Under the pieces are notes generated by a model. The model was not told the origin of the DNA and made no database searches. It was given only the letters and a program-made list of their open reading frames with translations. The translations under genes were made by a program, and so were the position numbers. From an uncultured Bacilli bacterium (lineage in GTDB: Bacteria > Bacillota_I > Bacilli_A > RF39 > UBA660), in the NCBI GenBank assembly GCA_947628685.1, contig CANRAT010000003.1, positions 1-36,348 on the forward strand: DNA of 36,348 nucleotides, written 5' to 3'. This document shows, piece after piece, positions 6,317 through 29,372 of this stretch (positions within the stretch are counted from its first letter, which is position 1; each line of letters opens with the position of its first letter).

Positions 6317-9300
6317 ATGAGAGTTTCTTTAATAAAAAACGGTAAAATATATAATACAAATCTTCCACTTGAAATAAATGGAAGTTTTTGGGTTGAAGAT
6401 AAAGATAAAAACAATATAAAAAGAAACCTTATAAATATTGAAGCAAATAATTCTAAATGGGTTTTAAAAAGTAATTTTGAAACTAAAATAATATATAACG
6501 GCAATAATGTTGAAGAAGTAGTTCTTGAAAATTATAATTTTTATGAATTACAAGTAAAAGGAGAACAATATAATTACATTTTATATACATCACCTGTATA
6601 TGATGATAATTCTTGTGAATATGAAGTTTCAAACAACTGTCAAATATATATAGGTAATGGTGTTAATAACACAATTAACTATAATAACAGATATATACAA
6701 GATAAACAGTGTTTAATACAATCAACTAATGGAATATGGAGTATAAATAACTTAAATAATAACGGAGTAGTTTTTGTAAATGGTATTGCAGTAAGTAAAT
6801 CTAATCTTAATATAGGCGATGTTGTATTTATAATGGGATTAAAGATAATTATATGTGGTAATTTCATAATAATGAATAACGTTAAAGGAATAGTAAATTA
6901 TAATACACAAGTATTAAGAAAAAGAGAACCTTTAAATTTACCTGTTGAACCACAAGAAGAAAAAGAAGAAGATACAAGTTTAAAAGTATATGAAAAACAA
7001 GAGTATTTCTTTAGAATGCCTAGATTTAGAACAAGTGTTGAAGAAGATACAGTAGAAATAGATCCACCTCCAGAACAAGAAAAACCTGATGAAATGCCAC
7101 TTGCTTATACTATAGGTCCTATGCTTACAATGGGATTAACATCAATGGTATCTGGTATAACTTCAATAAATAATGTAATGGAAGGAACACAAACATTAAA
7201 GTCTTCACTTCCTTCACTTGTAACTTGTGGTGCAATGTTACTTAGTATGATATTTTGGCCTCTTTTACAAAAACAATATTCAAAAAATCAAAGAAAGAAG
7301 AAAGAAAAACTAAGAATAAAAAAATATAATGAATATATAGAAGAAAGAAGAGGATATATAAGAGGTATAGTTTCTCGTCAAAGACAATCTTTAATAGAAA
7401 ATAATATACCACTTTCTGATTGTAAACAAATTATATTGAATAGAAAAAGAAATCTTTGGGAACGTAAGATAGAGCACGATGATTTTCTTAATTTAAGACT
7501 TGGTATAGGAAATGTAGAACCTTTTGTAAAAGTAAAATATCCAGAGGAACATTTTTCTTTAACTCAAAACAATTTAAGAGAAGTTTTAGATAAATTAGGT
7601 GCAGAAACAAAGATAATGACTGATGTACCTGTAACAGTTAATTTAACTAAAAAATATATCTCAGCAATAGTAGGTAAAAAAGAAATAACTAAATCATTCA
7701 TAGATGGATTACTACTTCAACTTATGACATTTTATAGTTATGAAGATTTAAAAATAGTAATAATGACTTCTAAAGAAAATGAATATAAATGGAAATTTTT
7801 AAAAACATCTCCATATTTGAGTGATGATGATAAAACTATTAGATTTTTCTCAACAGATGTAGATGAGGCAAATCAAATATCAATATATCTAGATAATTAT
7901 TTACAAAATAGAAAATATCAAGATGGAGATACCTCTAAATTAAAAACTGAAGACTATAAATCATATAAACTATATTTTCTTATAATAACAGACGATTATC
8001 AGTCTTTAAGAAATATTGAAATAATAAAAGATGTATTATCACAAAAAATTAATCTTGGATTTAGTATGTTAATAGTACAGGAAAGACTTTTGGGACTTCC
8101 TAATGAATGTACGACATTTATAAATGTAGAAGCAAATGATTCTATAATATTTGAAAATGAACTTACAAGTGATAAACAACAAGTATTTAAAGCAGATTTT
8201 ATTGGAGATTTAAATATAGAAAGTGTAAGTAAAGTTGTTTCAAACATACCAATAGAAATGGCAAAAGATAGATATTCATTACCTGAAAAATTAGGATTTT
8301 TAGAGATGTATAATGTAGGTAAAATAGAACAGTTAAATCCACTTAACAGGTGGAAAAATAACAATCCTATAACTAGTCTATCTGCTCCCGTTGGAGTAGA
8401 TACTAATGGTGAATTATTTAAACTCGATTTACACGAGAAATTTCACGGTCCACACGGACTTATCGCAGGTATGACAGGAAGTGGTAAATCAGAATTTATA
8501 ATAACTTATATACTTTCAATGGCAGTTAATTACCACCCAGATGAAGTAGCATTTGTCCTAATCGATTATAAAGGTGGAGGACTTGCTGGTGCATTTGAAA
8601 ATAAAGAAACAGGTGTAAAAATTCCACATCTTGCTGGAACTATAACAAACCTTGATGTAAACGATATGAAAAGAAGTTTAGCATCAATAGAAAGTGAATT
8701 AAAAAGAAGACAAAAAATATTTAATGATGCAAGACAAAAATTAAATGAAAGTACAATAGATATATATAAATATCAAAAATTAAGAAGAGAAGGAAAAGTA
8801 GAAGAACCAATTCCTCACTTGTTTATTATAAGCGATGAATTTGCTGAATTAAAAACACAGCAACCAGAATTTATGGAAAAATTAATATCAACTGCTCGTA
8901 TAGGACGTTCTTTGGGTGTGCATTTAATTTTGGCAACTCAAAAACCTAGTGGAGTAGTAGACGATCAAATATGGTCCAACACTAAATTTAGAGTATGCTT
9001 GAAAGTTCAAGATAAGCAAGATAGTGTTGATATGATAAAATGTCCAGATGCTGCTTCACTTCATAATGTTGGTAGATTTTACCTCCAAGTTGGGTATAAT
9101 GAATTTTTCGCTTTAGGACAATCTGCTTATGCAGGAGTACCATATCAAAAAACAGACAAAATAAAAAGAAAAATAGATACTAATATAAGTTTTATTAATA
9201 ATGTAGGATATATAATTAAAAATGTTGATAAAGAAGAAGTAAACATTAATGCAAAAGCAAATGGAGAAGAGTTATCTAATATAGTTAATTATTTATATAA

Positions 9301-11311: not shown

Positions 11312-11584
11312 ATGGCACAAATAAGTATTGAACCAAGTAAAGCGATTCAATATGGAGAACAAATAATTCAAAACGCATCTACATACAATAATGAAATTAA
11401 AAGAATTTATAGTATAGTAGGTGACTTAAGAACAAGTTGGACAGGAACAGCTGCTCAAAAATTTACAGATAATATTGAATCATTTAAAGCGGATTATGAA
11501 AAATTTGGACAATTGATAAATCAATTTGGTGAATTATTAGTTGCTATTGGTAAAGATTATCAAAAATTAGAGGAAAATTTATAG
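11312..11584 (+). CDS. WXG100 family T7SS substrate (EsxA-like)
   Basis: 90 aa; MAQISIEP start, central W-T-G, C-terminal YQKLE (YxxxE); GGGAGG RBS. Confidence 0.92.
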   Translation: MAQISIEPSKAIQYGEQIIQNASTYNNEIKRIYSIVGDLRTSWTGTAAQKFTDNIESFKADYEKFGQLINQFGELLVAIGKDYQKLEENL

Positions 11585-11601
11585 TAAGGGAGGAATAATA
11601 A

Positions 11602-11892
11602 ATGGCAATGACATTCTCATCACAAGGATGTAGACAAGCTGCGGCTGATTTAAATAAATCAGCAAGTACACTAGATATTATATTAAATAGTGAACTTACA
11701 GGAATAATAAGTAAAGTAAAAGATGCATATAACAGTGAAACGGCAGAAGAATTGTATGCAGCATTTGATAGGATGAAATCAAGATTTCCTGATTTTATAT
11801 CTTCAGTAACAGATTGCTCAAAGTATTTAACAGATACAGTTGCGCCTGCATATGAAAAACTTGAATCAACTGCTTCAAGTAAAATAGGATAA
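11602..11892 (+). CDS. WXG100-like partner protein (degenerate WXG)
   Basis: 96-aa helical hairpin with YNS at the WXG position and C-terminal YEKLE (YxxxE); GGGAGG RBS; 17 bp behind the WXG100 gene. Confidence 0.75.
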   Translation: MAMTFSSQGCRQAAADLNKSASTLDIILNSELTGIISKVKDAYNSETAEELYAAFDRMKSRFPDFISSVTDCSKYLTDTVAPAYEKLESTASSKIG

Positions 11893-12355: not shown

Positions 12356-15300
12356 ATGGCTGAGCTAGTACTAAATGTAAGTAAAGTAAATTCATATGTA
12401 ATACCAAACATAAGAAAAATAGAAGAATTAATGCAAGAAGCATATAGTACTAGTAATACATTAAAGAGTGCTTTACCAAGTACATTTAATTATAGAAGTA
12501 ATGTAAGTGATATAGTAAGTGAAATATATGATATAAAAAAAGAAGTAAGTAAAGTAAATACTTTAATAAATGAAAAAATAACTCAGGCAGAAAGAATAGA
12601 GAATACTGGTGATAATAAGATATCAGGTATAACATCATTAATACACGAATTAAATGCAGAATCATATGTAAAAAATAATAAATCTTTTGAAAACAGACTT
12701 AATAGTAGAACAACATTTAACATGATGGAAGATAAAATCCCAATTTATAAATCTACGGTAACTATAAATCAAACAAAAGCAAGTGAACAAATACAAACAG
12801 ATTCAGAGAATGTTATTGAACAAAAAGAAAATAGTGTTGAAGTAAGTGAAGTAGAGGAACAATCTACATTAGATTGGGTTGGAGAAAAGATAGATGGGGC
12901 AATAGATTTTGCAGGAGAAATATTAGAAGCTACAGGCTCTTTTATATGTGATTTAGGAAGTACAATATGGGATGGAGTAACTTCAGTATTTGATTGGGTT
13001 ACAGACGGTGATAATTGGAAAGAATTATTAGAATCATTAGGAGCGTCTATAGCGAATGCAGTAATATCTTTTTCAAAAGGAGTAGTAGATTTAGTAGAAG
13101 CTATAGGAGATACTTGTGTAATAATAGGTACAGGTGTTGCAACAGTAGGAACGGCATTATATGATGTAGGATATGGAATAGCAACAGGAGATTGGGATTT
13201 TAATGCAACAAAAGGATTATGGGAAGGTGCAAAAACGGTAGTATCATATGATTGGAGTAATAAAATATATGATTCGTTGTATGATACAAAAGCAGGTAAA
13301 TGGCTTGATGAACATGCTTATGCACCATTTAAATCAGATGGAATAGCATGTCAAGTAATTGAGGGTGTAGGTTATGTTGCGGGTGTTGTTACTCTTTCAG
13401 TAGTTACTTTTGGAGCTGCAGGAGTTACATTTGGAGCGACATCTACAGTAGGAGGACTTTCGGTAAACGCTGGAGCAGTAGGAGTAACTGCCTTTGCTAC
13501 AGGATTATCAAAACATACTTCCGAAGAATGGAATAAAAACAGTATATCATTAAATTATGGTGGACAAGATATAGAAATACCAATTGATTATGAAAAATAT
13601 TTAGAAATAGAAAATCTAAAAGAAAATGAAACTACTACAGTTACTCAACAATATCAAGCAGATGATGGAAGTGTGCAAGAAATAATGTTTACAATTACTT
13701 CTAAAGGTAACAAAGAGTATGATATAATAGATAATATAGGTAATGTTGCAAGTTTAAATAGTTTAAATGAATCTAGTACCACTAAAGGACTTTTGAAAGG
13801 CGTAGGTGGGGGAATAGCAGATGGATTTAAATATTATACAGCTATTTCTACTCTTGGTAATTTTCAGTCACTAGCAGGAATGATTAAGCATTTAGGATCT
13901 GGGAATTATGGAAAAGGTGTAGTATCATTATTTAAAAATTTTGGATTCAAACAAGCCTTTAAACCATTAGTTAAAAATGCAGCTAAAGCTACATTTAAGG
14001 ATATAGGATTTTATATAGATTCAGGTACATTTATATCAGGTGAGATAAAATCTGGAATTCAAACAGGAGAATGGAATTTAAAAAATATTGGTGCTGGAAT
14101 ATTTAGTGCATATACAAATAACTTTTTAGGAAATTTAGGTGGTGAATATTTCGGTAGTGGGTTAGGCTCTGCAATGAATAATATTGAAAAATCAAGAGTT
14201 GAGTTAGATACTAGTCCATATTCTTTTAATGAAAATGATCTAAATTATAAGCATTCAAATGTGGTTAAAGCTGCATCTAACAGAGTTGAATCTAATATAA
14301 ATAGGTATAGATATACAGATACTAATTTAGTTGATGGATTAAATGATAGTATAAAAGAGAATGGACTTTATCATTTCTCTTCAAATGTGGATGATATTAT
14401 AGATAGTGGCTATGTTAGATCTAGTGGTTATTTTAGTTCTTATGGTGAAAGAAAAAGTTTCTTTTTCAATGGCGTTCCTGAAGTTGGAGCATATGCTTCT
14501 AATTTAGATGGTATACCTCTTAAAACAGAAGCAGTTAAAATTTTTCCAAGCGATGACATAATTAATAGTTCAAAATTAAAAGTTAGAAATTATGATGATT
14601 TTGCTGTTACATATAGTGGCGATTTAAGATTCGATTCAAATAATGCAGCAAAGCAGTACTTCGTTTTGCGTAAGGTTGATGATAAATTGGTTTATGCTAA
14701 TGTTAACAAAGCATTCTATGATAATTATCAAAATACTGCAGAAGGTTTGGCTGTAGCTGAATTTATAAGTAAAAAGAAAAACGTTGATTTAATCAAACAA
14801 GATTATTATTATAATTTGTCAATGAAGAGTACTAATGCACAAATAACTTATTCCAAAGTTAAAAATAGTATAATAGAATCTGATAAAGGCAGTATAGATA
14901 TACCATCAAGTATTAATCATACTATAAATTTAAATGATATCAAAGATTATAAAAAATTTAGTGATTCAACTGAACTAATAAAGAAAAAACTTTGTTCAGT
15001 ATATGAACTTGATTATGATAGCAATGTAGCAGACAGAATGATGGTTAATGGAATTATGGAAATAATTGATGATAATAAATTTACAGATGAAAATGTTAAA
15101 TATATATTTGAGCATCTTGATAAATTAAAAGAGCATAATAAGTATTTGAGTTTTGCTACATATGATGGTACTTCAAGATATTTTGGTGGAGTTGACCAAT
15201 TGCAGATGGGTTTATCTGATTTAGATTCTAGTTGTAGAATGGTATTATCACATGAATTAGGACATACATCATACCAATGTGTGTTACCAGGAAAGACTAA

Positions 15301-15990: not shown

Positions 15991-16209
15991 ATGAATGAAA
16001 ATCAAAAATATATTGCTTATTGTTTATTACAAAATGAATATTTAAAAAGACAAGGTATATTACAAAATGAAAGTTTAGAGAATATAACACATTTTTTCCC
16101 AGAAGATTGGTTTTTATATAAATTGGATGCAAGGATTAATTTTATTAAAAAAGCATTGAAAGAAAACAAAAAATTGGAAGATATCTTAATTGGAGCTAAA
16201 CATTATTAA
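15991..16209 (+). CDS. Candidate immunity protein
   Basis: 72 aa, 2 bp after the toxin stop, with its GGAGG RBS inside the toxin end. Function inferred from position only. Confidence 0.55.
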   Translation: MNENQKYIAYCLLQNEYLKRQGILQNESLENITHFFPEDWFLYKLDARINFIKKALKENKKLEDILIGAKHY

Positions 16210-16242
16210 ATTTTGAATAACACTAGAAGGAGGAAAGAAAAA

Positions 16243-16563
16243 ATGAATAATGCGCATGAAAAATATTTACCAATAGGAACAGTTGTAATGTTAAAGGGTG
16301 GAAGCAAAAGATTAATGATAACAGGCTTTTGCTCTATGCCAACTGATGATAAAAATAAAATGTTTGATTATTCGGGATGTATGTATCCTGAGGGTGTACT
16401 ATCTAGCGATCAAACAGCATTATTTAACCATGATCAAATAGATAAAATCTATTATATGGGATATGTTGATGATGAAGAGAAAAAATTTAAGTCAACATTA
16501 AATGCATTAATAAGTCAAATGAATAAAAAAACTTCTAATTCACAAGACAGTAACGAAAATTAA
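16243..16563 (+). CDS. DUF4176 family T7SS-associated protein
   Basis: YLPIGTVVMLKGG.KRLMITG...DYSGC.YPEG...LFNH.QI..I...GY.DDEE; AGGAGG RBS. Confidence 0.92.
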   Translation: MNNAHEKYLPIGTVVMLKGGSKRLMITGFCSMPTDDKNKMFDYSGCMYPEGVLSSDQTALFNHDQIDKIYYMGYVDDEEKKFKSTLNALISQMNKKTSNSQDSNEN

Positions 16564-16586
16564 AAAAGAGATCAATTATCTCTTTT
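16564..16586. terminator. Probable bidirectional terminator
   Basis: AAAAGAGAT-CAATT-ATCTCTTTT between the convergent DUF4176 and XRE genes. Confidence 0.65.
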
Positions 16587-17805: not shown

Positions 17806-17817
17806 TTGGTGATAAAA

Positions 17818-20800
17818 ATGAAAGTTATTGTAGAAAGTGAAAAAAATTTAAATATAACATCTTTGCCAGAAAGTGTTACAGGAAATTACTGGATATTAGA
17901 TAATAATTCTAAAAATTTATTAAATGTAATAGGCGAAAATGGCAAATGGGTATTAAAAAGTAATGCTGATATAAAAATAAGCGCTAATATATTAAAAGAT
18001 GATTTGGATAATATAAATTTTATAGATTCAGCTGTATTAGATGTTAATAGAATTTATTATGCAGCTAATTCAGTAACTAAGGAAAAATATATATTATATA
18101 CATTACCTAGTTATGAAAATTTTGAAAATTTACTTATAGATTATACTAAGACGAATAATATTGTAATTGGAATAGATAGCAGTTGTGATATAACGGTTAA
18201 AAATATATTATTTGAATCAAAACAATTAAGTTTCGAATATGTAAACCAAAATGGTGGAGTTTTAGTAAAAAATTTATCTAATAGAGTCAAACTATTTATT
18301 AATAATAAATTTTGTAATCAGTCATATTTAAATAGAGGTGATATTCTATTTGTTGGAGGTTTATTTATATATTTTTTTGGCACTTTAATACTTGTCAGTA
18401 ATAATAAAAATGATTTAGTTTTTAATTCTTCTAAATTAACTAAAAGAATGATGTATGAAAACCCTGATATAGATTATTCTAGTTTAATAGATAGGGAAGT
18501 ATCTTTCTTTGATAAAAGTAAATATTTTCAAAGACCACCTAGATTTAAAAGACAAATAGAAAAGAAAATATTTAACATAGATGCTCCAACGCAAAAAGAA
18601 AAACAAGATGATATGCCATTGATTTTTACTGTCGCTCCTATGCTTACTATGGGTATGATGAGTATGGTATCAGGGGCAACTGCACTCCAAAAAGTTTTGA
18701 GTGGAGAAAGTACAATAAAAGAGCAATTTCCATCCTTACTTATGTGTGGGTGCATGCTCGTTTCAATGATTTTATTCCCTTTATTTCAAAAATTTTATAC
18801 TAAACGTAAAAAAATTCAAAAAGAAAAACAAAGAAGAAAAAAGTATAAAAATTATATTGATGAAAAACGTGAAGAAATAAAAAAAGAAATAAATTATCAG
18901 AAATCAGTATTAGTTGAAAATAATTTGCCTATTGAAAATGTTAGAGATGTTATTTTAAATAAATCAAGGACACTGTGGGAAAGAAAAATAGAACACAATG
19001 ATTTTTTGGAATTAAGACTAGGCATAGGGACTAGAAAGCCTGATATAGAAATTAAATATCCGGAGGAACACTTTACACTAGATGAAGATGATTTAAAAGA
19101 TTTAATAGCAGATTTAATTAAAGAAAATAATGATTTAAAGGATGTCCCTATTACATTAAATTTTAAAGATCATAACAAAGTGGGACTTATAGTAGAAAAA
19201 AATATAACAAGAAGTTTTCTTGATAATTTAATGCTACAAATTATGGCTTTTCATGGGTATGACATGTTAAGATTAGTTATTTTAACTAATGGAGAAAATA
19301 AATCTTATTGGGAAAAATATAAAAGTATTCCTTTTTTATGGAATAATGATAAAAGTGTAAGATATTATGCATCAAATAAGGATGATGTTAACAAAATAAC
19401 TAGCATATTAATGGAAGAATATAACTATAGAAAAGAAACAAATAGTGAAAATAAAGAAATATCAAAATTTATTCCATATTATTTAGTTGTAACTGATGAT
19501 ATAGTATCTGTAAAAAATAATGTTTTTATTAGTGAAATCTTAAAAAGTGAAATTAACTTGGGATATAGTATAATTATGGTAGATAATAAATTAAACAATA
19601 TTCCTAATGAATGTAGCATGTTTATCAATGTTGCTCAAAATTCTAGTGCGATATTTACAAATGAAATGACTGAAGGTAATCAAATAATTTTTAGACCAGA
19701 TTTTGTAAACTTTTCACTAAGAAACTGTATTATTAATATAAGCAATATTCCTATGGATATAAATGGCGGTAAATTTGTATTACCTAAAAAATATGGATTT
19801 TTAGAGATGTTTGATGTTGGTAATGTCAATCAGTTAAATATTATTAATAGATGGAAAAATAATGATATAACTAATTCTTTGGAAGCACCAGTTGGAATAG
19901 ATGAGCAAGGAGAATTATTTAAATTGGATTTACACGAAAAAACTCATGGCCCACACGGACTTGTTGCAGGTATGACTGGTAGCGGTAAATCTGAATGGAT
20001 AATTACATATATTCTTTCTATGGCAATAAATTATAGTCCTGAAGAAGTGCAATTTGTTTTAATTGATTACAAAGGTGGAGGACTTGCTTTAACATTCGAT
20101 AATAGAGAAACTGGAGTTAAACTTCCACATGTTGTAGGTACTCTCACTAATTTAGATATAGTTGAGATGAATAGAAGTCTAGCAAGTATAAATAGCGAAC
20201 TTAAAAGAAGACAAAATATGTTTAAAGAGGCTCGTGAAAAATTAAATGAAAGTAGTATGGATATATATAAATATCAATCATTATATAGAGCAGGAAAGTT
20301 AGAAGAGCCTATGAGTCATTTATTTATAATAAGTGATGAGTTTGCTGAGTTAAAAAGTCAGCAGCCAGAGTTTATGGATGAACTTATTTCAGCTGCTCGT
20401 ATAGGACGTTCACTTGGAGTACATTTAATTCTTGCAACACAAAAACCTAGTGGAGTAGTTGATGATCAAATATGGTCTAACTCTAAATTTAGAGTTTGCT
20501 TAAAAGTTCAAGATAAAAGTGATTCAAACGATATGTTAAAGCGCCCTGAAGCAGCAATGCTTAAAGAAACAGGTAGATTTTATTTACAAGTAGGTTATAA
20601 TGAATTTTTCGCACTAGGACAATCGGCTTATGCAGGAATGCCGTATTATGAAAGTGATAAAAAAATTACAGTAGTTGATTCAACAGTAGATTTTATAGAT
20701 GAAATTGGTAGAGTTATTAAAAAGGGTGATTTAGAGAAAAATAATACACAGTTTGTTCATAAAGGCGAAGAACTTCCAAATATTTTAAATTATATAATTG

Positions 20801-22425
20801 ATGCAGCTAAAACTCAGAATTTAAAAATCAAACCACTTTGGCTTAGTAGTATTCCAGGAACGATATATGTTGATAAATTAAAAGAAAAATATAATTATCA
20901 AAAAGAAGATTATGTTTTAAATCCTATTGTTGGTGAATACGATGACCCACATAAACAGCAACAAAATTTATTAACAGTACCACTTAGTAAAGATGGCAAC
21001 TTCTTATTATATGGGGCAAGTGGTAGTGGAAAAGAGTTATTCTTGACAACTTTATTATATTCACTAATAACTACTTATACTCCAGATGAGGTCGGAATAT
21101 ATATATTAGATTTTGGAACAGAGGTATTAAATAATTTTACTGAAAGTTCACATGTAGGGGATGTAGTACATTCTGGTGAAGATGAAAAAATAGATAATTT
21201 GTTTAAGTATATAAAAACTGAAATAGATTTAAGAAGAAAGAAATTTTTACAATATAATGGTAGTTATGAAGATTTTATTGCAAATTCAGATAAAAAAATA
21301 CCAAATATAGTTGTAGCTATTAACTCATTTGATGTCTTTGAAGAATTATATAACAACCAAGCAGAAAAATTATACGAATTAACAAGAGAGTGTAATAAAT
21401 TTGGAATATATTTTGTACTTACTGTAAGTTCTATTAATGGAGTAAAAAGCAAATTATTGCAAACATTTAAAACAATATATTCTTTGCAACTTAACAATGA
21501 ATTTGATTATAGAAGCATTTTTGGAAATACTAACGGTGTTACTCCTTCAAAACTATATGGTAGAGGATTATTTAAGAAAGATAGGGTATTAGAATTTCAA
21601 ACTGCATTTGCTTTTGAAAGAGATGAACTTTATAAAAAAATACTTGAAATGTCAATTAAATCATTTATGAAATATAAGACAAAAATGAAACAAATACCTG
21701 TATTACCTAAAGAGGTTGAGTTTGGACATATTAACAAAGGAGAACTTGGATTTAATTTTATACCTGTTGGTCTAGTAAAGAAAGATTTAGGAATTGCTAG
21801 TATAAAACTAAAAGATGAACTTAGTTATTTAATAAGTTTTAGAGATTTTGATGAAAATGTTACATTTATCGATAAATTCTTACGTATATTAGATAGCGGT
21901 AATATGGATACAATAGTTTTTGATGCTAAATATATTTATGAAACAAACGATTTTAAAAAGATAAGATATTTAAATACAGGATATACAGGTATGTTAGAGA
22001 CATTGAATAAGTTTGTTAATGAAGTAGATGATGTTTTAAAAAATAATAAAAACAATATGAGGGCAATCAAGAATATTGGTGAAGTATTATGTGTCGTTAT
22101 AGGATTTGATAAATTTATAAGTTCATTATCTAAAGAAGATAAAGATATATTTATTAATATATTAACAAAAGCAAAAGATAATTTAAAAATTCATTTTATA
22201 TTTATAGATATTCCAGCAGGATTTAAACCTTATGAATTCGAATCTTGGTATAAATCAACGATAGATGTATCTACTGGGCTTTATATAGGTGATGGATTTG
22301 CGGAACAATATTTAATTAAACCTACAAAAGTTCTTCAAGACTATTATGCAGTTATAGGAAATAACTTTGGATATATAGTTGAAAAAGGACAAGTTAAGTT
22401 TATTAAGATAATTGAAAAAATGTAA
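17818..22425 (+). CDS. essC: Type VII secretion ATPase EssC, paralog 2
   Basis: Same architecture as paralog 1: FHA-like N-terminus, 2 TM helices, HGPHGLVAGMTGSGKSE, DEFAELK, RSLGVHLILATQKP, second ATPase GASGSGKE, degenerate third domain. Start set at ATG 17818 after GGTGA. Confidence 0.95.
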   Translation: MKVIVESEKNLNITSLPESVTGNYWILDNNSKNLLNVIGENGKWVLKSNADIKISANILKDDLDNINFIDSAVLDVNRIYYAANSVTKEKYILYTLPSYENFENLLIDYTKTNNIVIGIDSSCDITVKNILFESKQLSFEYVNQNGGVLVKNLSNRVKLFINNKFCNQSYLNRGDILFVGGLFIYFFGTLILVSNNKNDLVFNSSKLTKRMMYENPDIDYSSLIDREVSFFDKSKYFQRPPRFKRQIEKKIFNIDAPTQKEKQDDMPLIFTVAPMLTMGMMSMVSGATALQKVLSGESTIKEQFPSLLMCGCMLVSMILFPLFQKFYTKRKKIQKEKQRRKKYKNYIDEKREEIKKEINYQKSVLVENNLPIENVRDVILNKSRTLWERKIEHNDFLELRLGIGTRKPDIEIKYPEEHFTLDEDDLKDLIADLIKENNDLKDVPITLNFKDHNKVGLIVEKNITRSFLDNLMLQIMAFHGYDMLRLVILTNGENKSYWEKYKSIPFLWNNDKSVRYYASNKDDVNKITSILMEEYNYRKETNSENKEISKFIPYYLVVTDDIVSVKNNVFISEILKSEINLGYSIIMVDNKLNNIPNECSMFINVAQNSSAIFTNEMTEGNQIIFRPDFVNFSLRNCIINISNIPMDINGGKFVLPKKYGFLEMFDVGNVNQLNIINRWKNNDITNSLEAPVGIDEQGELFKLDLHEKTHGPHGLVAGMTGSGKSEWIITYILSMAINYSPEEVQFVLIDYKGGGLALTFDNRETGVKLPHVVGTLTNLDIVEMNRSLASINSELKRRQNMFKEAREKLNESSMDIYKYQSLYRAGKLEEPMSHLFIISDEFAELKSQQPEFMDELISAARIGRSLGVHLILATQKPSGVVDDQIWSNSKFRVCLKVQDKSDSNDMLKRPEAAMLKETGRFYLQVGYNEFFALGQSAYAGMPYYESDKKITVVDSTVDFIDEIGRVIKKGDLEKNNTQFVHKGEELPNILNYIIDAAKTQNLKIKPLWLSSIPGTIYVDKLKEKYNYQKEDYVLNPIVGEYDDPHKQQQNLLTVPLSKDGNFLLYGASGSGKELFLTTLLYSLITTYTPDEVGIYILDFGTEVLNNFTESSHVGDVVHSGEDEKIDNLFKYIKTEIDLRRKKFLQYNGSYEDFIANSDKKIPNIVVAINSFDVFEELYNNQAEKLYELTRECNKFGIYFVLTVSSINGVKSKLLQTFKTIYSLQLNNEFDYRSIFGNTNGVTPSKLYGRGLFKKDRVLEFQTAFAFERDELYKKILEMSIKSFMKYKTKMKQIPVLPKEVEFGHINKGELGFNFIPVGLVKKDLGIASIKLKDELSYLISFRDFDENVTFIDKFLRILDSGNMDTIVFDAKYIYETNDFKKIRYLNTGYTGMLETLNKFVNEVDDVLKNNKNNMRAIKNIGEVLCVVIGFDKFISSLSKEDKDIFINILTKAKDNLKIHFIFIDIPAGFKPYEFESWYKSTIDVSTGLYIGDGFAEQYLIKPTKVLQDYYAVIGNNFGYIVEKGQVKFIKIIEKM

Positions 22426-22502: not shown

Positions 22503-23255
22503 ATGATAGAGTTAATAAGTAATAAAATAGTATTGGATGGCAATTATGAAATTAGAGAATATTATACAGATAATGGGATTGTAAGAACATTTTGCTCTGA
22601 TGGACAGATTCAGTCAGCAGAATATATTGATAAAGAAAAAAGAGATTTTTTAGTATTAAATTATCTTACTTTTTTTAATATACCATTTGACTTAAACCCT
22701 AACGGAAAAGATTGTTTAATGTTAGGTGGAGGAACATTAACATATCCAAGTTATTTTTTAAGAAATTTTTTTGATAAAAAAATAGATGTTGTTGAAATAG
22801 ATAAATATTGTATAGATATTGCACAAAAATACTTTTTTATTGCTGAAACTTTAAAAAAATATGATTTAAATAGAGAAAGGATTAATATAATTATTGAAGA
22901 TGCGGTTAATTATGTTGAAATTTGTAATAAAAAATATGATTACATTTTAATAGATTTATTTAAAGGTAAAAATCCACTAAAAGGTATATACAAAAAAGAT
23001 AGTTTACTTAACATAAAAAATTTGTTAAATAAAGGAGGAATCATAGTAGCAAATTACATAATGTTTAAAGAGAATAGTTATAAAGAAGATATAGAAAATT
23101 TAATTAATTTATCTAAATATTACAAAATAATTACCGATAAAGAAAATTATGATTTTCAAAATAAATTTGGGAATGTGTTTGTAATATTATCTGATAATGA
23201 AATAGTAATTCAAAATAAATATAATTATATTGAATTAGATAAGGATGTGATTTAA
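22503..23255 (+). CDS. Spermidine-synthase-like class I SAM-binding protein
   Basis: CLMLGGG (motif I), IDVVEID, IIIEDA..YV, KYDYILIDLF, LNKGGIIVAN. Confidence 0.8.
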   Translation: MIELISNKIVLDGNYEIREYYTDNGIVRTFCSDGQIQSAEYIDKEKRDFLVLNYLTFFNIPFDLNPNGKDCLMLGGGTLTYPSYFLRNFFDKKIDVVEIDKYCIDIAQKYFFIAETLKKYDLNRERINIIIEDAVNYVEICNKKYDYILIDLFKGKNPLKGIYKKDSLLNIKNLLNKGGIIVANYIMFKENSYKEDIENLINLSKYYKIITDKENYDFQNKFGNVFVILSDNEIVIQNKYNYIELDKDVI

Positions 23256-23393: not shown

Positions 23394-24011
23394 GTGGCAA
23401 TACATTGTGTAAATCCAAATACAGTTGGAACTCAAGCAGAAGAAATGTTTAATATAACAAATACAACTGGTAGAGATTTAATTAATAGTTTTAGCACAAC
23501 TATAGAAAATTTAAAAAGTCATTGGAAAGGTTCAGATGCAGTGGCAAATTTAACAGATTTATCTAAAGTTTATACTGCAGTAACAGATTTAGTAAAAAAT
23601 CTACAAAATATTATTGTTAGTGTTAATAATAATGAAGTAGTTCCAATGCAAAAACATATTGTAGCTAGTGGAGGATCTTGTACAATAGGAAACGAACTTG
23701 CTGTAACTTTAAATGGAGTTGAATCAGTTATATCTGTACCAACGGAGGCAGTAGAGAGTTGGACTGATCCAGCAATTATTGCTGATGCACAGACATTTAC
23801 TAATTTTCCAACAACATTTGAAAATTTTGTAAATGCATTGAATGAAGCGAAAAATAATTTATTGAATAATTGGTTAGATGGAGCAAACAGGGCAGATGTA
23901 GTAACAACATTTGAAAATTTCAATAACAATGTTCCAGATTATAAAAGTCAAATAACAAAAGTTAGAGATAATTTAAATATAGTTGCTGAAAATAAAAAAC
24001 AATTATTATAG
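23394..24011 (+). CDS. Tandem (double) WXG100-like protein
   Basis: About 205 aa, two roughly 95-aa helical hairpins with SHWKG and NWLDG turns. GTG 23394 is the likely start after GAAGGTGG. Confidence 0.7.
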   Translation: MAIHCVNPNTVGTQAEEMFNITNTTGRDLINSFSTTIENLKSHWKGSDAVANLTDLSKVYTAVTDLVKNLQNIIVSVNNNEVVPMQKHIVASGGSCTIGNELAVTLNGVESVISVPTEAVESWTDPAIIADAQTFTNFPTTFENFVNALNEAKNNLLNNWLDGANRADVVTTFENFNNNVPDYKSQITKVRDNLNIVAENKKQLL

Positions 24012-24020
24012 GATTTATTT

Positions 24021-24052: not shown

Positions 24053-24078
24053 AGGATTTAGTGTAGGAGGTGCATCAA

Positions 24079-24477
24079 ATGTCATTAATTGTAGCAACTT
24101 TAGTTGTTGGTGGAGCTTTAACCGCTATTGGAATAGGAGGAGGCATTTGGTACGCCAGTACGGAAGATGATAGAGCAAGAGAACGAATTAAGCAATTAGA
24201 AGCTGAAAATGAATCGCTTAATTTTGCAGTAGATTATGTAAGTAACATAAATAACAAACTTAATAGTGCAAAAGATTATTTAAATCAAGCAAAAAAAGAT
24301 TTTCAAAACGGTGGTCATGTTTTAGATGGAGTTCCTTTAGCGGATACGGAATTTACATCTTGTATTAATAAAATAAATGGAGCAATAACGAATGCTACAA
24401 ATCTTATAAATGATTTTAACGCTACGATTGATCAGAATAAAAAAGAAATAAGTAAGGAACAAGAAAAGTTAAAATAA
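24079..24477 (+). CDS. Small helical T7SS effector helper with an N-terminal Gly-rich hydrophobic segment
   Basis: AGGAGG RBS; LIVATLVVGGALTAIGIGGGIW, then coiled coil-turn (GGHVLDG)-coiled coil, similar to 11976-12344. Confidence 0.55.
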   Translation: MSLIVATLVVGGALTAIGIGGGIWYASTEDDRARERIKQLEAENESLNFAVDYVSNINNKLNSAKDYLNQAKKDFQNGGHVLDGVPLADTEFTSCINKINGAITNATNLINDFNATIDQNKKEISKEQEKLK

Positions 24478-24507
24478 TTAAAGTTTTAGCAAAAAGGAGT
24501 GAATTGT

Positions 24508-27420
24508 ATGTTTAAAAGTGAAGCAAAATTATTTTTAAGTGCAAATAACAATGTTAATTCTGCTAAAACTTTAATAAATGAATGTAAAAGATTAATTGTT
24601 GATTTTGATTTGACTGGAGATTCAAATAGTAATGATTTAAAAAATAATATTAATAACTGCAATATAGATTCTCTAGTAGATAAAATTGAAGAAACAAAAG
24701 AAAGTTTAATGAAATTAGACCAAACTTTTGCAAGTGAATATATGACTTTATTGCAAGAATATCTTCAATCACAAACAATAGATACATCAAGCATGACAGA
24801 AGAAGAACAAATGAAATATAGTATACAAATGAATGCTTATGCCAGGGATTATAATCAAAATCTTTTATATATGTTAGAAAGATATGAAGAATCAGGAATG
24901 TTAACGGATGAGATGAAACAGCAACTAGAATATCAAAGAGAACTAGTTGCTCAATACGATATAAAAGATAAAATGGCTGTTTTAGATTCTACAAGTGAGG
25001 AATATATTGATTTATTTAAAAAGAATGCAGAAAGTGATAGAAAATTAATTAATTTAGATCCGAGTTTAACTGAAGAGCAAAAAGTATCGTATTTAAATGC
25101 ATACGAGACGAATTATAATCAGCAATTACAAGCTTTACAAGAAGCAATAGATTATAAATTAAAAAATGATAAATTAGAGAAAGAATTACAGGATTTATAT
25201 AAAGCAAAAGAAGATAATAATGGATTTTTTCACCCATTTGTTGAGAGTGAAATAGAAGAAGCTATTTTAGATAAGAAAATAGAGATAGGTAAGTTTAATC
25301 CAAAGAGTCCATATGCAGCAACAGAGGATGATATAGATTATAAAAATATGAATGGATGGGATAGATTTTGGACAAATACAGGGACATTTTTAACATCAAC
25401 ATTTACAGGCTTATACGACATATCAGAAGGAATTGAAGACGGATTTATTACTTTAGGTAGTGCAGTAGGCATAGTAGATAAAGATTGGGCTACGGAATTT
25501 GTAAGTAAAGATTTATCAGGGGAATTATATCAAGGAATAGTTCTTAATAAAGGAATGAATACAACTTCTGCTTATGGAACTTGGCACGAAGTAGGCGAAG
25601 TATTTGGTGGTTTTGTAGGTAAAGTAGGTATGTCCTTTGCGTGTCCTTGGGTAAATACAGTTATGAGTGGATTAAGCGCAACGGGGCATCAAGCAGAGAT
25701 ATCGTTTAATAATGGTGATGATTATTGGATGGCAGTAGGTAAAAGTTTTATTTCTGGAATTGGAGGAGCAGCAGAAGGATTTGCATACAGTAAGATGAAA
25801 ATGGCATTTCGAGAAATGCGTGGCAAGGGAACTATTAAACAGTTATGGAAACAAGTAATTACAAATGGTGAAACTTTGTCTAAAGAAGGATTAAAACAAG
25901 TAGGTAAAACATTTGGACATTCTTTAATTTCAGCAGCTATAGATCCAGATAGTTTAATTGAATCTGGATGCGTGGTAGCAAATGATTTTATGAATTTTTT
26001 AGCAACTGAAGAATTTAATTTAGAAGAAACTTTGAAAAAAGTAGGCAAAGCATATTTGTATAATTTAGGCATAAAATTTGCAAGTGATTTAGCATTTGGT
26101 TATGAGCCGTTTGGTAAAAAAGTAGATGAACTTGTCAATTCTAATGTAGCAGAACAACATTTTAAAAATAAAAATGCTGACATTTTGTTACAAAATAGCA
26201 ATTTATCAAATATAGATTATGTGGTCGAAATAACAAGCAAAATGGATGAATATAATCAACTATTAGACAATGCATCAGATGATGTAAAATATGCTTTAGA
26301 AGAAGCAAAAAGTGGCCATGCTATTGGTTTTAGTAGTCAGGCAGATGTTGATGTTTATACTAAACTTTCTAAATTACAAAAGGAAATTGGAGATTTACAG
26401 AAACATATTAATTTAAATATAAATACTAATGTTGGTAAGATCGATTCAGCACAACGAGCAAAAATAAAGGGAACTAATATAGATGTTGTATATGCCTATG
26501 ATGAATGTTTAAAACCATATGAAGGTAGAATCTATGAAACATATGGAATGACAAATTTACCAAAAGAGCAAGTCATAGATAACTTGGAAACAATAAAAAA
26601 ATATGACGGTCGTACTATTGGTGATAAACTTGATACTATAAGGAAAAATGAAGGACAATATTCTATTAAATCAGTTACTGCTGAATCAACTGCAATGCAA
26701 ACAATTATTGAAATAAGGCAAAGTTCTGTTCAATCTAAAGTTAGTAAAAGTCATAATAAAATTAGTGTGGTTCAAAAACAAGTGGATGACATGCTTGAAT
26801 TGACAAATTCATCACAATATAAACAATTTAAAACTCCAAAAGAAGCTAGAAAATATTTTAAAAGTGATCTAGAATATTGGGATTCTGCTCAAAAAAGTAT
26901 ATCACTGGATGATCCTAAACATCTTGGCTATGAAGGGATGCGCAAGTATACTGATTCAAAATATATATATATGAATCCATATATGCGAAATATAGGCCCA
27001 CTAAATTCAAAATCTGAAGCATTAATAGGTAATTTAGCAAATACATTAGATGAATTTAAGCTACAAGATGATATAGTTTTTTATAGAGGCGTTGACGAAT
27101 TAAATTGGTTACTTAAAGAAAATAATTTACCTATTGGTTCGGAAAATTTAAAATTATTATCTGGTGGAACTGTTATTGTAAGTGATAATGCATTTATGAG
27201 TGTCACTCCAGTAATGGGCGAAGGATTTACATACAAGAAAATTGTTGAAGTTATAAAAGCGCCAGCTGGAACAAAAGGTTTATTTGTCGATACATTTTCA
27301 TCATGTCCAGATGAGGTTGAATTTCTTATTCAAGCAGGTGAAGGTAATAGAAAAGTTTTGCAGGCAGTTGAAGAAATTGGCGATCAAATATTTGTTTACA
27401 GTGTGATTGTACCTAAATAG
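24508..27420 (+). CDS. T7SS polymorphic toxin with a C-terminal VIP2/C2-like ADP-ribosyltransferase
   Basis: LTG turn near the N-terminus, Gly-rich middle, and C-terminal YT...Y..MN..MR, VFYRG (catalytic R at 27085), AFMSVT, APAGTKGLFV, DEVEFLI (ExE at 27313-27321). Confidence 0.88.
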   Translation: MFKSEAKLFLSANNNVNSAKTLINECKRLIVDFDLTGDSNSNDLKNNINNCNIDSLVDKIEETKESLMKLDQTFASEYMTLLQEYLQSQTIDTSSMTEEEQMKYSIQMNAYARDYNQNLLYMLERYEESGMLTDEMKQQLEYQRELVAQYDIKDKMAVLDSTSEEYIDLFKKNAESDRKLINLDPSLTEEQKVSYLNAYETNYNQQLQALQEAIDYKLKNDKLEKELQDLYKAKEDNNGFFHPFVESEIEEAILDKKIEIGKFNPKSPYAATEDDIDYKNMNGWDRFWTNTGTFLTSTFTGLYDISEGIEDGFITLGSAVGIVDKDWATEFVSKDLSGELYQGIVLNKGMNTTSAYGTWHEVGEVFGGFVGKVGMSFACPWVNTVMSGLSATGHQAEISFNNGDDYWMAVGKSFISGIGGAAEGFAYSKMKMAFREMRGKGTIKQLWKQVITNGETLSKEGLKQVGKTFGHSLISAAIDPDSLIESGCVVANDFMNFLATEEFNLEETLKKVGKAYLYNLGIKFASDLAFGYEPFGKKVDELVNSNVAEQHFKNKNADILLQNSNLSNIDYVVEITSKMDEYNQLLDNASDDVKYALEEAKSGHAIGFSSQADVDVYTKLSKLQKEIGDLQKHINLNINTNVGKIDSAQRAKIKGTNIDVVYAYDECLKPYEGRIYETYGMTNLPKEQVIDNLETIKKYDGRTIGDKLDTIRKNEGQYSIKSVTAESTAMQTIIEIRQSSVQSKVSKSHNKISVVQKQVDDMLELTNSSQYKQFKTPKEARKYFKSDLEYWDSAQKSISLDDPKHLGYEGMRKYTDSKYIYMNPYMRNIGPLNSKSEALIGNLANTLDEFKLQDDIVFYRGVDELNWLLKENNLPIGSENLKLLSGGTVIVSDNAFMSVTPVMGEGFTYKKIVEVIKAPAGTKGLFVDTFSSCPDEVEFLIQAGEGNRKVLQAVEEIGDQIFVYSVIVPK

Positions 27421-27631
27421 AAAGGAGATGTTATGTATAGAAAATAGTAACAATAAATATAATACTGATTTTGGCATAACAAAAATTATGGATGCTACTG
27501 GAAAAGTATTAACTAGAGAAGAACTTATAAAATTAATGAAAATGAAAGAAGAAAATCTTAAAAAGCAAAAAGAATATATAAAAAACAATTTTGATGATGA
27601 AATGTTTGAAAATATTCCCAGGCAAAGATAA
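27407..27631 (+). CDS. Small protein after the toxin, candidate immunity (start uncertain)
   Basis: 74-aa frame overlapping the toxin end. The best RBS (AAGGAG) points to an out-of-frame ATG at 27433. Confidence 0.4.
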   Translation: MYLNRKEMLCIENSNNKYNTDFGITKIMDATGKVLTREELIKLMKMKEENLKKQKEYIKNNFDDEMFENIPRQR

Positions 27632-27702
27632 TAATGAGTAATTATGTCAGATGTTTTGGTACTGAATTTATAATTAAATCTTTTATATTTGGAGGATATG
27701 AT

Positions 27703-28830
27703 ATGACAAATAAAAAAATAATATCAAAATATAAGTCAGAAAAAAGCGAAGAAAAAAATTTATCTTTTAAAGATTTAATTTACTGTTTGAAAAATGAAAA
27801 AACTAATTTATTGAATCAATCACAATATAATGGAAATAAAAGTGAAACTAAAGATTTTAATAACATATTAAATTCCATAGTCGGTTTTACAGTGGGAGAT
27901 GCTTTAGGAGTCCCTGTCGAATTTAAATCAAGACAAAAATTAGAAATCAATCCATTGAAGGAAATGATCGGCTATGGTTTTCATAAAGTACCCGAAGGAA
28001 CTTGGAGCGATGATTCATCAATGATGTTAGCTACTATGGATTCAATAATAGAAAAAAAGGATATAGATTACAATGATATTATGAAAAAGTTTTGTGATTG
28101 GTATGCTGATTCAAAATACACTGCAACAGGGATTACTTTTGATATTGGTATTTCAACAAGTAAGGCATTGCAAAAATTTTATAACGGATTATCTGCTCTT
28201 GAATGTGGAGGTAATGGAGAATATGATAATGGTAATGGTTCTTTAATGCGACTTTTACCTATTGTTTTATATTCATTTTATAATAATTTGAATGAAGAAC
28301 AAGAAATAGAGTTAATAAGCAACAGTTCATCATTAACCCACAATCATGAAATAAGTAAATTGGGGTGTAAAATATATACTGATTTTGTAAAATCATTGTT
28401 GAAAGGTCAAACAAAAGCACAGGCTTTTAATGATATACTTAGCAAAGATTATAGTGAACATTATTCTAATGGAAGCATTAATTATTATAAAAGATTACTG
28501 AATATCAAATTTCCAGAATTAAGTAGTAGTGAAATTAATTCTTCTGGATTTATTGTAGATACGTTAGAAGCAAGTATTTGGTGTTTACTTACAACAAGTT
28601 CGTATGAAAATGCGGTTGTTAAAGCGATAAATTTGGGTAATGATACTGACACGATAGGAGCAATAACTGGTTCAATGGCAGGTATTTTATATGGTTATGA
28701 AAGTATTCCCGAAAGATGGATATCAAAATTAAAAAATAAAGAATATTTGTTTAGTTTAATCAACAAATTTGATGAAACTTTAATTAATTTGAAATATAAT
28801 GAAAACAGTGATGCCAAAAAGAACCTATGA
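27703..28830 (+). CDS. ADP-ribosylglycohydrolase (ARH/DraG family) with an N-terminal extension; candidate immunity
   Basis: VGDALGVPVEF, GTWSDDSSM, FDIGIST, NGNGSLMR, LTHNH, GNDTDTIGAITG; GGAGG RBS before ATG 27703. Confidence 0.93.
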   Translation: MTNKKIISKYKSEKSEEKNLSFKDLIYCLKNEKTNLLNQSQYNGNKSETKDFNNILNSIVGFTVGDALGVPVEFKSRQKLEINPLKEMIGYGFHKVPEGTWSDDSSMMLATMDSIIEKKDIDYNDIMKKFCDWYADSKYTATGITFDIGISTSKALQKFYNGLSALECGGNGEYDNGNGSLMRLLPIVLYSFYNNLNEEQEIELISNSSSLTHNHEISKLGCKIYTDFVKSLLKGQTKAQAFNDILSKDYSEHYSNGSINYYKRLLNIKFPELSSSEINSSGFIVDTLEASIWCLLTTSSYENAVVKAINLGNDTDTIGAITGSMAGILYGYESIPERWISKLKNKEYLFSLINKFDETLINLKYNENSDAKKNL

Positions 28831-29009
28831 GTGAATTTAAGATAGTAAAAGAACATAAAAAAATTTTGATATTAAAATAATTTATTTTGAAATAATATTT
28901 GTTAATTATGAAAAATCGTATATTAATAAAATCCTAAATATTAGTTATAAGAGTTCAATTGAATTTAGAAAAGATTTAATTAAAAATTTAAATAAAAAGG
29001 AGAAATTTT

Positions 29010-29372
29010 ATGAATGAAAAATTTAAAAAGTATTTACCATTAGGAAGTGTAGTATTAATGAAGGGTGGTAAAAAAAGGATTATGGTGACAGGGTATGCGG
29101 TTAAAGCACCAGAATCAGGAGATAGACTTTGGGATTATATAGGTTGCTTATGGCCTGAGGGTATGATAACACCTGATAAAAATCTGCTTTTTGACCACAA
29201 GGATATTCAACAAATATTTGCTATTGGATATTCTGATGATGAACAAAAAAGATTTATGAGTGTATTGGATAAAGCTACTCAATTAAGAGAAGATAGATTA
29301 AATCAAAATAATGTAGTTGTTGATAGTACAAATTCAAACAATAATGGTGATGATACAAATTCAAATGGTTAA
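29010..29372 (+). CDS. DUF4176 family T7SS-associated protein, paralog 2
   Basis: YLPLGSVVLMKGGKKRIMVTG...DYIGCLWPEG...LFDHKDI..I...GYSDDEQ; AAGGAG RBS. Confidence 0.92.
   Translation: MNEKFKKYLPLGSVVLMKGGKKRIMVTGYAVKAPESGDRLWDYIGCLWPEGMITPDKNLLFDHKDIQQIFAIGYSDDEQKRFMSVLDKATQLREDRLNQNNVVVDSTNSNNNGDDTNSNG

Follow-up and report, generated by a model that had tools for sequence, protein, structure and literature searches.

The window analysed here is an entire 36-kb contig (C3; 36,348 nucleotides) of a metagenome-assembled genome (MAG) from an uncultured Bacilli bacterium. The assembly comprises 1.29 Mb in 94 contigs at ~26% GC, and is 92% complete and 6.4% contaminated. All genes of interest in the window lie on the + strand, where they form two consecutive cassettes, each centred on EssC, the membrane ATPase in type VII secretion systems (T7SS), and on a small ubiquitin-like protein resembling YukD/EsaB (Table 1). 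The initial annotation had described both cassettes as bounded by identifiable genes and as encoding only this pair as machinery. Both descriptions hold: ffh and an SNF2 gene delimit the block, the TIGR03928 scores and a predicted beta-grasp fold support the two assignments, and a third EssC-YukD pair was found on another contig (C37). Neither EssB nor EsaA, which belong to the canonical T7SSb locus, was found in this genome or its genus by profile searches.

Table 1. Features of the window and the matches supporting them (cut-off for PF06013, 27.3 bits)
Feature	Position	Strand	Evidence
ffh (SRP54), left boundary of cassette 1	4935-6239	+	Pfam SRP54, SRP_SPB, SRP54_N
EssC1, membrane FtsK/SpoIIIE-type T7SS ATPase, 1544 aa	6317-10951	+	TIGR03928 1031.7 bits (cut-off 778.4), PF01580
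YukD/EsaB-like protein, predicted ubiquitin fold, 92 aa	10914-11192	+	PF08817 E 2.6e-3, below cut-off; member of 24-sequence family
WXG100 protein (EsxA-like)	11312-11584	+	PF06013 41.1 bits; TIGR03930 45.3 vs 44.85
Second WXG100-like protein	11602-11892	+	PF06013 E 1.1e-4, 22.8 bits, below cut-off
Helical protein, 125 aa	11967-12344	+	No family; weak coiled-coil matches only
1210-aa protein	12356-15988	+	No Pfam or NCBIfam family; no convincing transmembrane segment
72-aa open reading frame after 1210-aa protein	15991-16209	+	No family found
DUF4176 protein of cassette 1	16213-16563	+	PF13780 97.3 bits
HTH_3 (Xre-type) regulator, end of cassette 1	16572-16808	-	PF01381 40.3 bits
Copy of ffh 3' end, exact, 292 bp	17152-17443	.	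Matches 5947-6238 (exact-match scan, alignments)
YukD/EsaB-like protein, predicted ubiquitin fold, 84 aa, upstream of EssC2	17551-17805	+	No Pfam match; same BLAST family as 92-aa copy
EssC2	17806-22425	+	TIGR03928 995.2 bits (cut-off 778.4)
Spermidine-synthase-like (SpeE-like) methyltransferase-fold protein	22503-23255	+	PF01564 58.4 bits
WXG100-type protein, 208 aa	23385-24011	+	PF06013 35.5 bits
135-aa protein, N-terminal transmembrane helix (residues 4-22) and coiled coil	24070-24477	+	Sub-threshold matches only
Putative T7SS toxin, 973 aa	24499-27420	+	No Pfam family; C terminus ADP-ribosyltransferase-type by PDB match
74-aa open reading frame between toxin and hydrolase	27407-27631	+	No family found
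ADP-ribosylglycohydrolase	27634-28830	+	PF03747 246.7 bits
DUF4176 protein, end of cassette 2	29010-29372	+	PF13780 90.1 bits
SNF2, right boundary after cassette 2	29983-33138		

EssC1 has two degenerate N-terminal FHA domains, two transmembrane (TM) helices, a DUF, and ATPase domains. When compared with PDB sequences, its residues 222-981 matched Bacillus subtilis YukB (PDB entry 9qks_G) at E 4e-124, and EccC5 was matched as well. EssC1 and EssC2 are 46% identical over their full length (701/1534 positions, BLASTP). The third EssC (1537 aa) is encoded at 2005-6618 on the minus strand of contig C37 (locus L014, 1-8431), where it is accompanied by an 89-aa YukD-like gene of its own and by a large protein truncated at the edge of the contig. 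EssC3 also adjoins a 550-aa pilin-like (N_methyl) protein. Contig C88, which carries two WXG100 genes and one DUF4176 gene, may be part of this cassette. The open reading frames (ORFs) of all three EssCs are intact (1537-1544 aa) and all retain the Walker A and Walker B motifs of the first ATPase domain, D1 (GMTGSGKS and LFIISDE in EssC1), while in the second ATPase domain Walker A closes with GKD or GKE in place of GKS or GKT. All three paralogues have FHA-like domains, which occur nowhere else in the genome; no stand-alone FHA protein was found there, and a genome search for DUF6382 gave no match. The phosphothreonine motif, which we take to be GR..SxxH..NG, is lost from FHA2 of the EssCs in the window's family and kept in four relatives (L079, L078, L097, and L063). 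The single Ser/Thr kinase (Pkinase) gene of the genome lies on contig C40, away from the cassettes.

The three YukD-like copies belong to one family, with 24 sequences from the genus related by BLAST. Pfam's PF08817 matches only the 92-aa copy, below the cut-off, the true start of which is probably a little downstream of 10914, and gives no match for the other two; the family profile retrieved nothing related from PDB sequences. An AlphaFold model computed from the family alignment (A1) adopted a beta-grasp fold with pLDDT 91 and pTM 0.80. Foldseek aligned this model with the ubiquitin-like domain of EccD5 (7np7_D2, E 3e-5), with YukD (2bps_A, TM-score 0.74), and with the YukD chain of the B. 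subtilis core unit (9qks_A, TM-score 0.73). Many ubiquitin-like proteins give similar scores, and the fold is therefore not specific for YukD by itself. The model taken together with the position of the gene beside EssC in 39 of 42 loci points to a YukD/EsaB protein.

Prediction of a complex between residues 1-700 of EssC2 and its own YukD gave a score of 0.79, compared with 0.00 for the best of three controls, on a scale whose calibration mark is reached by 58 of 80 solved complexes and by 2 of 110 mismatched pairs. Separate runs agreed on at least 72% of contacts, and the partner had a pLDDT of at least 84. The predicted interface involves FHA1/2, the linker, and the DUF, so that the modelled docking resembles the solved B. 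subtilis YukB-YukD unit, a likeness and not a proof of binding. For the B. subtilis core, excerpts of a 2025 cryo-EM study (PMC12637312) assign the central channel to YukB and an outer crown to YukC dimers, with YukD gripped "like a ball in a hand" by the FHA domains and DUF of YukB. This picture fits a reduced machine in which exactly EssC, FHA domains included, and YukD are left.

Genetics in S. aureus and B. subtilis indicates that none of EssA, EssB, and EsaA is dispensable. The Staphylococcus aureus system depends on EssA, EssB, EssC, and EsaA (PMC4949537, in excerpt). We searched for these components with hidden Markov models (HMMs) and observed no YukC/EssB, EsaA, or EssA match among the proteins of either cassette. 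Across the genome, TIGR03926 (EssB), TIGR03929 (EsaA N terminus), and PF10661 (EssA) gave no match at E<=10. When 7814 six-frame ORFs of the genome were searched with HMMs built from canonical loci of the same class (15 EssB, 9 EsaA, 13 EssA, and 14 EsaB sequences), no match was better than E 0.03; for EssB none was better than E 0.05, EsaA gave no match, and EssA returned only noise at E>=0.03. Such a genome-wide search had been named in advance as the test of the proposal, and it produced no match to refute it.

Several candidates were rejected. The YukC model PF10140 matched C1:35291-35497 with 18.2 bits, in an alignment that reads through a stop codon separating a DUF5411 ORF from a SAF/FlgA-like ORF. 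The same match recurred at 15-23 bits in six further genomes (G003, G009, G014, G019, G020, and G021), three of which (G003, G009, and G019) carry no EssC; the signal at this junction is reproducible but probably a composition artefact. Searching the six-frame ORFs by phmmer with EsaA, EssA, EsaB, and EssB of a canonical locus (G026) yielded only a 56-aa ORF at E 0.0045, which was treated as noise. Finally, the 1210-aa and 973-aa proteins were considered as EsaA-like and dismissed, as the TM topology is not there; the only clear TM helix outside EssC in both cassettes belongs to the 135-aa protein.

The absence extends beyond this genome. Within the genus, YukC and EsaA_N each exceeded the cut-off in 0/27 genomes, and EssC did so in 21/24 congeners. 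A family sample of 121 genomes from 120 genera contained EssC above the cut-off in 41 and YukC in none. These genus and family genomes include some in 5-10 contigs that are 94-98% complete. As a control, we scored 300 genomes of the class (one further genome was not scored). Among other families, 15 genomes were EssC-positive; 14 of these had YukC above the cut-off and 14 had EsaA_N at E<=1e-4, the exception being the same genome (G384) in both cases. Among the 16 EssC-positive genomes of the window's family, none had YukC and one (G425) had an EsaA_N match, which lies 21 kb from EssC and resembles a match in G325, a genome that is EssC-negative. Canonical loci of the class (14, plus that of G026) are tightly clustered and mostly follow the order EsxA-EsaA-EssA-EsaB-EssB-EssC. 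EssA and EsaB of the G026 locus received no Pfam or NCBIfam match. Because a canonical EssA is missed in this way, the absence of EssA is not demonstrable by HMM.

Gene neighbourhoods were compared for 42 loci: the window, C37, 20 loci from the genus (including G026), and 20 from the family (including G384). Four families recurred, namely EssC (46 genes), the YukD-like family (43 genes in 39 loci), WXG100 (24 loci), and DUF4176 (16 loci). The YukD-like family is missing from three loci, namely L039, L055, and the canonical one of G026. When the 109 upstream neighbours of the 46 EssC genes were compared all against all at high sensitivity, no family was present in more than three loci, and neither the locus nor the upstream comparison contained a recurrent small TM gene beside EssC. 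One block conserved in six genera (families f23, f24, etc.) was considered as a hidden EssB analogue and rejected as housekeeping synteny; by eye it reads as an HtrA-type protease, an Abi-like protein, ribosomal proteins, TruA, and ECF ATPases. The prevailing gene order in the window's family is EssC-YukD-WXG, and cassette 2 has YukD-EssC. Tandem EssC cassettes occur independently in three further loci (L026, L027, and L028, from genomes G015, G024, and G011), and in G024 an orthologue of cassette 2 stands behind a different first cassette. The EssC-bearing genomes carry 1-3 EssC copies of 4.6 kb within ~1-1.2 Mb.

A scan of a species-representative genome collection with EssC1 returned 48 loci. 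Most are titled as uncultured Bacilli MAGs, and some were labelled Tenericutes, Mycoplasma, Erysipelotrichaceae, Clostridia, or Clostridium by their submitters. The other relatives, at 35-41% identity, come from Lachnospiraceae, Acutalibacteraceae, Eubacterium, and Pelotomaculum MAGs and from the cultured Paenibacillus xylaniclasticus NBRC 106381. The YukD HMM of the genus matched 42/48 of these loci, and the class-built EssB, EsaA, and EssA HMMs matched 0/48. Several of the outside relatives have additional genes: two Ser/Thr kinase-like proteins in P. xylaniclasticus (L079), and a PP2C phosphatase with a TM kinase in Acutalibacteraceae (L102). In an Acetatifactor MAG (L098, 12841-17720), EssC-YukD is followed directly by Tad genes encoding RcpC/CpaB, a TadZ-like AAA protein, a T2SSE ATPase, and two polytopic proteins, a layout that echoes the T7SS-Tad adjacency reported for T7SSg and T7SSh. 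These extra genes are hallmarks of the kinase- and Tad-linked subtypes catalogued by Garrett, Higginson, and Palmer in 2024 (PMC11217815), which is used here and below in excerpt.

For speed, the phylogeny used one in three of the genus rows and one in two of the family rows. The FastTree tree held 68 rows, 4 of which are non-EssC proteins of at least 1350 aa on long basal branches (L052_12852, L113_855, L122_6221, and L031_2315). Among the 64 EssC rows, the 39 of the family type form one clade with an SH-like (Shimodaira-Hasegawa-like) support of 85, and the other clade (95*) unites 13 canonical T7SSb rows with the clostridial and Paenibacillus types. This separate clade, together with neighbourhoods devoid of a recurrent EssB- or EsaA-like gene, is the outcome of the phylogeny and survey that the initial annotation had called for; the family's EssCs are not simply T7SSb minus genes. 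EssC1, EssC2, and EssC3 sit in three different subclades and are therefore old paralogues or products of transfer within the family. The locus of G384 (L063), from another family of the class, has the order DUF4176-EssC-YukD-WXG-WXG in a genome without a YukC or EsaA match; its EssC has the canonical phosphothreonine motif in the FHA domain and belongs with the types from Paenibacillus and Lachnospiraceae. Loci that look reduced are therefore found beyond the window's family as well.

How the cassettes relate to described T7SS types can be judged from the ten subtypes, a-j, of PMC11217815, in which TsxA, TsxB, and TsxC are (almost) universal and each subtype has further components. The same excerpts place the accessory genes beside essC in every subtype they describe. 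The broad core is present here as an EssC/EccC-type FtsK/SpoIIIE ATPase, WXG100 proteins at the locus, and, according to the model, a YukD-type ubiquitin fold. By this universal core the system is a T7SS, yet it is not T7SSb, and the defining extras of the b, f, g, and kinase-linked types are missing. The resemblance to T7SSb includes an EssC that passes the T7SSb EssC equivalog TIGR03928 and matches YukB, two N-terminal FHA-like domains without the phosphothreonine motif, a free-standing protein of predicted YukD/EsaB fold, WXG100 and DUF4176 proteins, large putative toxins with immunity genes, and a predicted EssC-YukD docking that, like the solved core unit, involves FHA, linker, and DUF. 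The differences concern the missing EssB/YukC and EsaA/YueB (genome- and genus-wide, and for YukC also family-wide), the lack of an EssA-like neighbour, and the position of YukD, which mostly follows EssC, whereas the T7SSb order is esxA-esaA-essA-esaB-essB-essC. In addition, the EssCs fall outside the canonical T7SSb clade, and up to three diverged paralogues occur per genome.

T7SSg, the simplest type described in those excerpts, comprises two WXG100 proteins, a ubiquitin-like B component, and the ATPase C, and cassette 1 likewise has two WXG100 genes after EssC-YukD. However, TsgC has no FHA domain, and T7SSg includes the DUF5050 beta-propeller protein TsgL and always lies beside Tad pilus genes (PMC11217815), whereas the EssCs studied here have FHA-like domains and no DUF5050 or Tad family was found among the cassette proteins. 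T7SSf of Clostridia shares an FHA-bearing ATPase, a YukD-like B, one WXG100 A, and low-GC anaerobic hosts, but it is distinguished by TsfF (a PPM phosphatase), TsfJ (DUF6382 and FHA), and TsfV (an AAA+ protein with a TadZ-like domain) (PMC11217815). These extras are absent from the cassettes; DUF6382 is also absent genome-wide, and for PP2C no genome-wide search was made. The kinase-linked T7SSc, d, e, and j encode the membrane Ser/Thr kinase TsxD at the locus, and in d, e, and j the FHA motif is conserved on the ATPase (PMC11217815); unlike these, neither cassette contains a kinase. The nearest EssCs outside the lineage, at 35-41% full-length identity, belong to T7SSe/j-like and Tad-linked loci of Clostridia and Paenibacillus, in which the YukD family is directly downstream and WXG100 pairs follow. 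Kinases, a phosphatase, or Tad genes and the intact FHA motif characterise those loci, whereas here none of these genes stands beside EssC and the motif is lost. Our literature search found no description of a natural, EssB-less T7SS made of A, B, and C only, although members of this clade may be present in the accession tables of PMC11217815.

The remaining genes of the cassettes include putative T7SS cargo and candidate partners. In cassette 1, the second WXG100-like gene is kept beside the first in six genus loci. The family of the 125-aa helical protein recurs upstream of large proteins in nine loci, and from this position it is probably a Lap-like partner of the downstream large protein. 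That 1210-aa protein gave no match in a PDB sequence search, and Atlas matches at 0.75-0.80 to WXG100 and LXG effector clusters are to be taken as leads only; its location makes it a putative T7SS substrate or polymorphic toxin. The LXG Pfam search of the genome gave no match. The 72-aa ORF next to it is, by position, a possible immunity or partner protein. DUF4176 is said to stabilise an LXG toxin (PMC12482557, in excerpt).

Cassette 2 has a SpeE-like gene directly after EssC2, as does the EssC2 orthologue in G024 (L027); for its product, all NCBIfam SpeE models scored far under their cut-offs. The 208-aa protein contains two separate WXG100-like halves (23448-23633 and 23769-23990) and may be a covalently fused WXG100 pair. 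The 135-aa protein probably partners the toxin encoded just after it. In that 973-aa protein, residues 811-964 matched Lmo0066 (PDB entry 8za7_B) at E 1.7e-12 and, weakly, Toxin 2A (5urp_A, E 0.01), suggesting from sequence that it is likely an ADP-ribosylating toxin, and the adjacent ADP-ribosylglycohydrolase is probably its immunity protein. The pairing of an ADP-ribosyltransferase toxin with an ADP-ribosylhydrolase immunity protein is known as the Tre1/Tri1 type of the type VI secretion system. Here too, an ADP-ribosyltransferase-type C terminus is followed by an ADP-ribosylglycohydrolase, but the putative pair sits in a T7SS-type cassette, which would deliver it.

Upstream of cassette 1, the contig carries ThiI, two small acid-soluble spore protein (SASP) genes, a helix-turn-helix TM protein, a 6-TM protein, and ffh, in that order, and after cassette 2 it ends with SNF2, GATase, and RNase Y. 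The SASP genes are of the alpha/beta type (2660-2869 and 4626-4838) and, within a 1.29-Mb genome, suggest that the host is a spore-former with a strongly reduced genome. Five penicillin-binding protein (PBP) transpeptidase genes are present in the genome, and the cell therefore has a wall.

In the window and in nine more genus loci, the gene upstream of EssC is a full-length ffh (434 aa), its usual neighbour on that side in the genus; ORFs of the ffh family occur in 11/42 loci, the window and 10 genus loci. The exact copy of the ffh 3' end between the cassettes, in which a 94-aa ORF (17160-17444) repeats the ffh C terminus, forms a direct repeat that, with the real ffh end, flanks the whole EssC1 cassette (~10.9 kb). 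This is the footprint expected from a single-crossover insertion or recombination at ffh, and such bracketing was not seen at other genus loci. In the Logan contigs of four runs (X1, X2, X5, and X7), the region is represented by fragments of <=2.2 kb; among the fragments listed, none bridges the repeat at 17152-17443, and the listed joints have sides of <30 letters. We rejected ffh fragments as a sign that cassettes had inserted repeatedly in other genomes, as the second ffh ORF of G021 belongs to one split gene. At that locus (L031, G021:C12), just upstream of an EssC1-type cassette, ffh is present as two ORFs covering residues 1-319 and 321-417, reflecting a frameshift or an assembly error.

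Together, these data favour the proposal of a stripped-down T7SS subtype made in the initial annotation: neither EssB nor EsaA was found in the genome or genus, and the class control shows both components in 14 of 15 EssC-positive genomes of other families. We consider it probable that the loci represent a reduced T7SS subtype shared across this lineage of uncultured gut Bacilli, in which the core is limited to A, B, and C and EssC and toxin come in self-contained cassettes. Gene content, its conservation, the lack of EssB and EsaA by HMM, and the distinct clade of the EssCs are observed directly, and the YukD fold is modelled. Secretion by the cassettes and the roles of their small proteins are read from sequence, and the mechanism we propose is conditional on them. 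EssC would oligomerise into the membrane channel and motor, as in current models of B. subtilis and ESX-5, and might be the channel on its own. YukD would be clasped between the EssC FHA domains and the DUF, stabilising the assembly unit, and the WXG100, Lap-like helical, and DUF4176 proteins would escort large polymorphic toxins to the C-terminal ATPase domains of EssC. Each cassette would stand by itself, having a diverged EssC, a YukD, and an effector/immunity set of its own; cassette 2 would export the ADP-ribosyltransferase-type toxin, with the ADP-ribosylglycohydrolase as its immunity protein. More tentatively, EssC, a YukD-type protein, and WXG100 may constitute a complete T7SS in a walled Firmicute, in which the EssC oligomer is the sole membrane component and EssB, EsaA, and EssA are add-ons, a possibility rather than an expectation.

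Several points weigh against a reduced subtype. The S. aureus system needs EssA, EssB, EssC, and EsaA, and a three-part machine is therefore without experimental precedent. The passage of substrates across the wall of a walled cell lacks an explanation if no EsaA-like part is involved. Every genome examined is a MAG, the one studied here being incomplete, contaminated, and fragmented to the extent given above. Small membrane proteins of the EssA type are invisible to the HMMs, and their absence is argued from neighbourhoods only. The clade support of 85 is unstarred, and the FastTree phylogeny was computed on a fast alignment and contains no labelled T7SSc-j references. The predicted EssC2-YukD complex may reflect memory of the solved unit 9qks.

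Part of this evidence would equally suit the main rival, which we regard as unlikely but not negligible: EssC works with one or more unrecognised membrane proteins encoded elsewhere, functional analogues of EssB, EsaA, or EssA whose sequences are unrelated or have diverged beyond detection, and the system is reduced only in appearance. EssC keeps two FHA-like domains, whose counterparts in B. subtilis contact YukC as well as YukD (PMC12637312, in excerpt). As the FHA domains in T7SSb also bind EssB, their retention makes a non-homologous partner elsewhere possible, which counts against an EssC-YukD core acting on its own. A partner of this kind could be small, like the EssA and EsaB that escape Pfam and NCBIfam in a canonical locus; it could supply the EsaA-like function that is not seen in this walled cell; it could lie in the parts missing from incomplete MAGs; and PMC11217815 allows that components may remain unidentified in rare subtypes. 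Against this rival, nothing beyond EssC, YukD, WXG100, and DUF4176 recurs in the 42 loci or the 109 upstream neighbours, accessory genes always sit beside essC in the subtypes that PMC11217815 describes, and within the class the canonical loci form tight clusters. Moreover, highly reduced genomes of ~1.1 Mb still keep 1-3 EssC genes of 4.6 kb.

It is improbable that the cassettes are decaying or repurposed and no longer secrete, for example with EssC kept for another translocation task. The degenerate FHA phosphothreonine motif and the GKD/GKE ending of the second Walker A could be taken as signs of decay, but the motif is likewise missing from FHA domains of functional T7SSb EssCs (PMC11217815), and all three paralogues have intact ORFs with conserved D1 Walker A and B. 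EssC and YukD remain together in 39 of the 42 loci, in many different genera, alongside WXG100, DUF4176, and putative toxin/immunity pairs, and the cassettes are retained in ~1 Mb genomes. The weakest alternative, and a very improbable one, is that raised in the initial annotation, namely that the cassettes are extra EssC-effector modules using a canonical EsaA/EssA/EssB core elsewhere in the genome: the several EssC paralogues with their own effectors do recall staphylococcal essC-variant modules, and a ~5 kb cluster could be missing from an assembly of 92% completeness in 94 contigs, but this reading is largely refuted, as far as HMMs see, by the failure to find EssB or EsaA in the genome or YukC in the 27 genus and 121 family genomes, by the success of the same HMMs in 14 of 15 EssC-positive genomes of other families of the class, and by the complete EssC, with N-terminal and membrane parts, and the YukD that each cassette possesses.

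The minimal T7SS and the identity of its channel-forming subunit are unsettled for Gram-positive systems, and this family bears on both. An EssC/YukD/WXG100-only system is retained in genomes that have shed almost everything dispensable, and its compact cassette of three to five genes suits reconstitution and cryo-EM. It would extend the catalogue of subtypes c-j, which was built from RefSeq (PMC11217815), into uncultured gut lineages. If it is true that three parts suffice, the family would be a natural minimal T7SS, with 1-3 independent copies per genome, each for its own toxins. The cassettes also suggest that contact-dependent toxin warfare matters even to gut commensals with tiny genomes.

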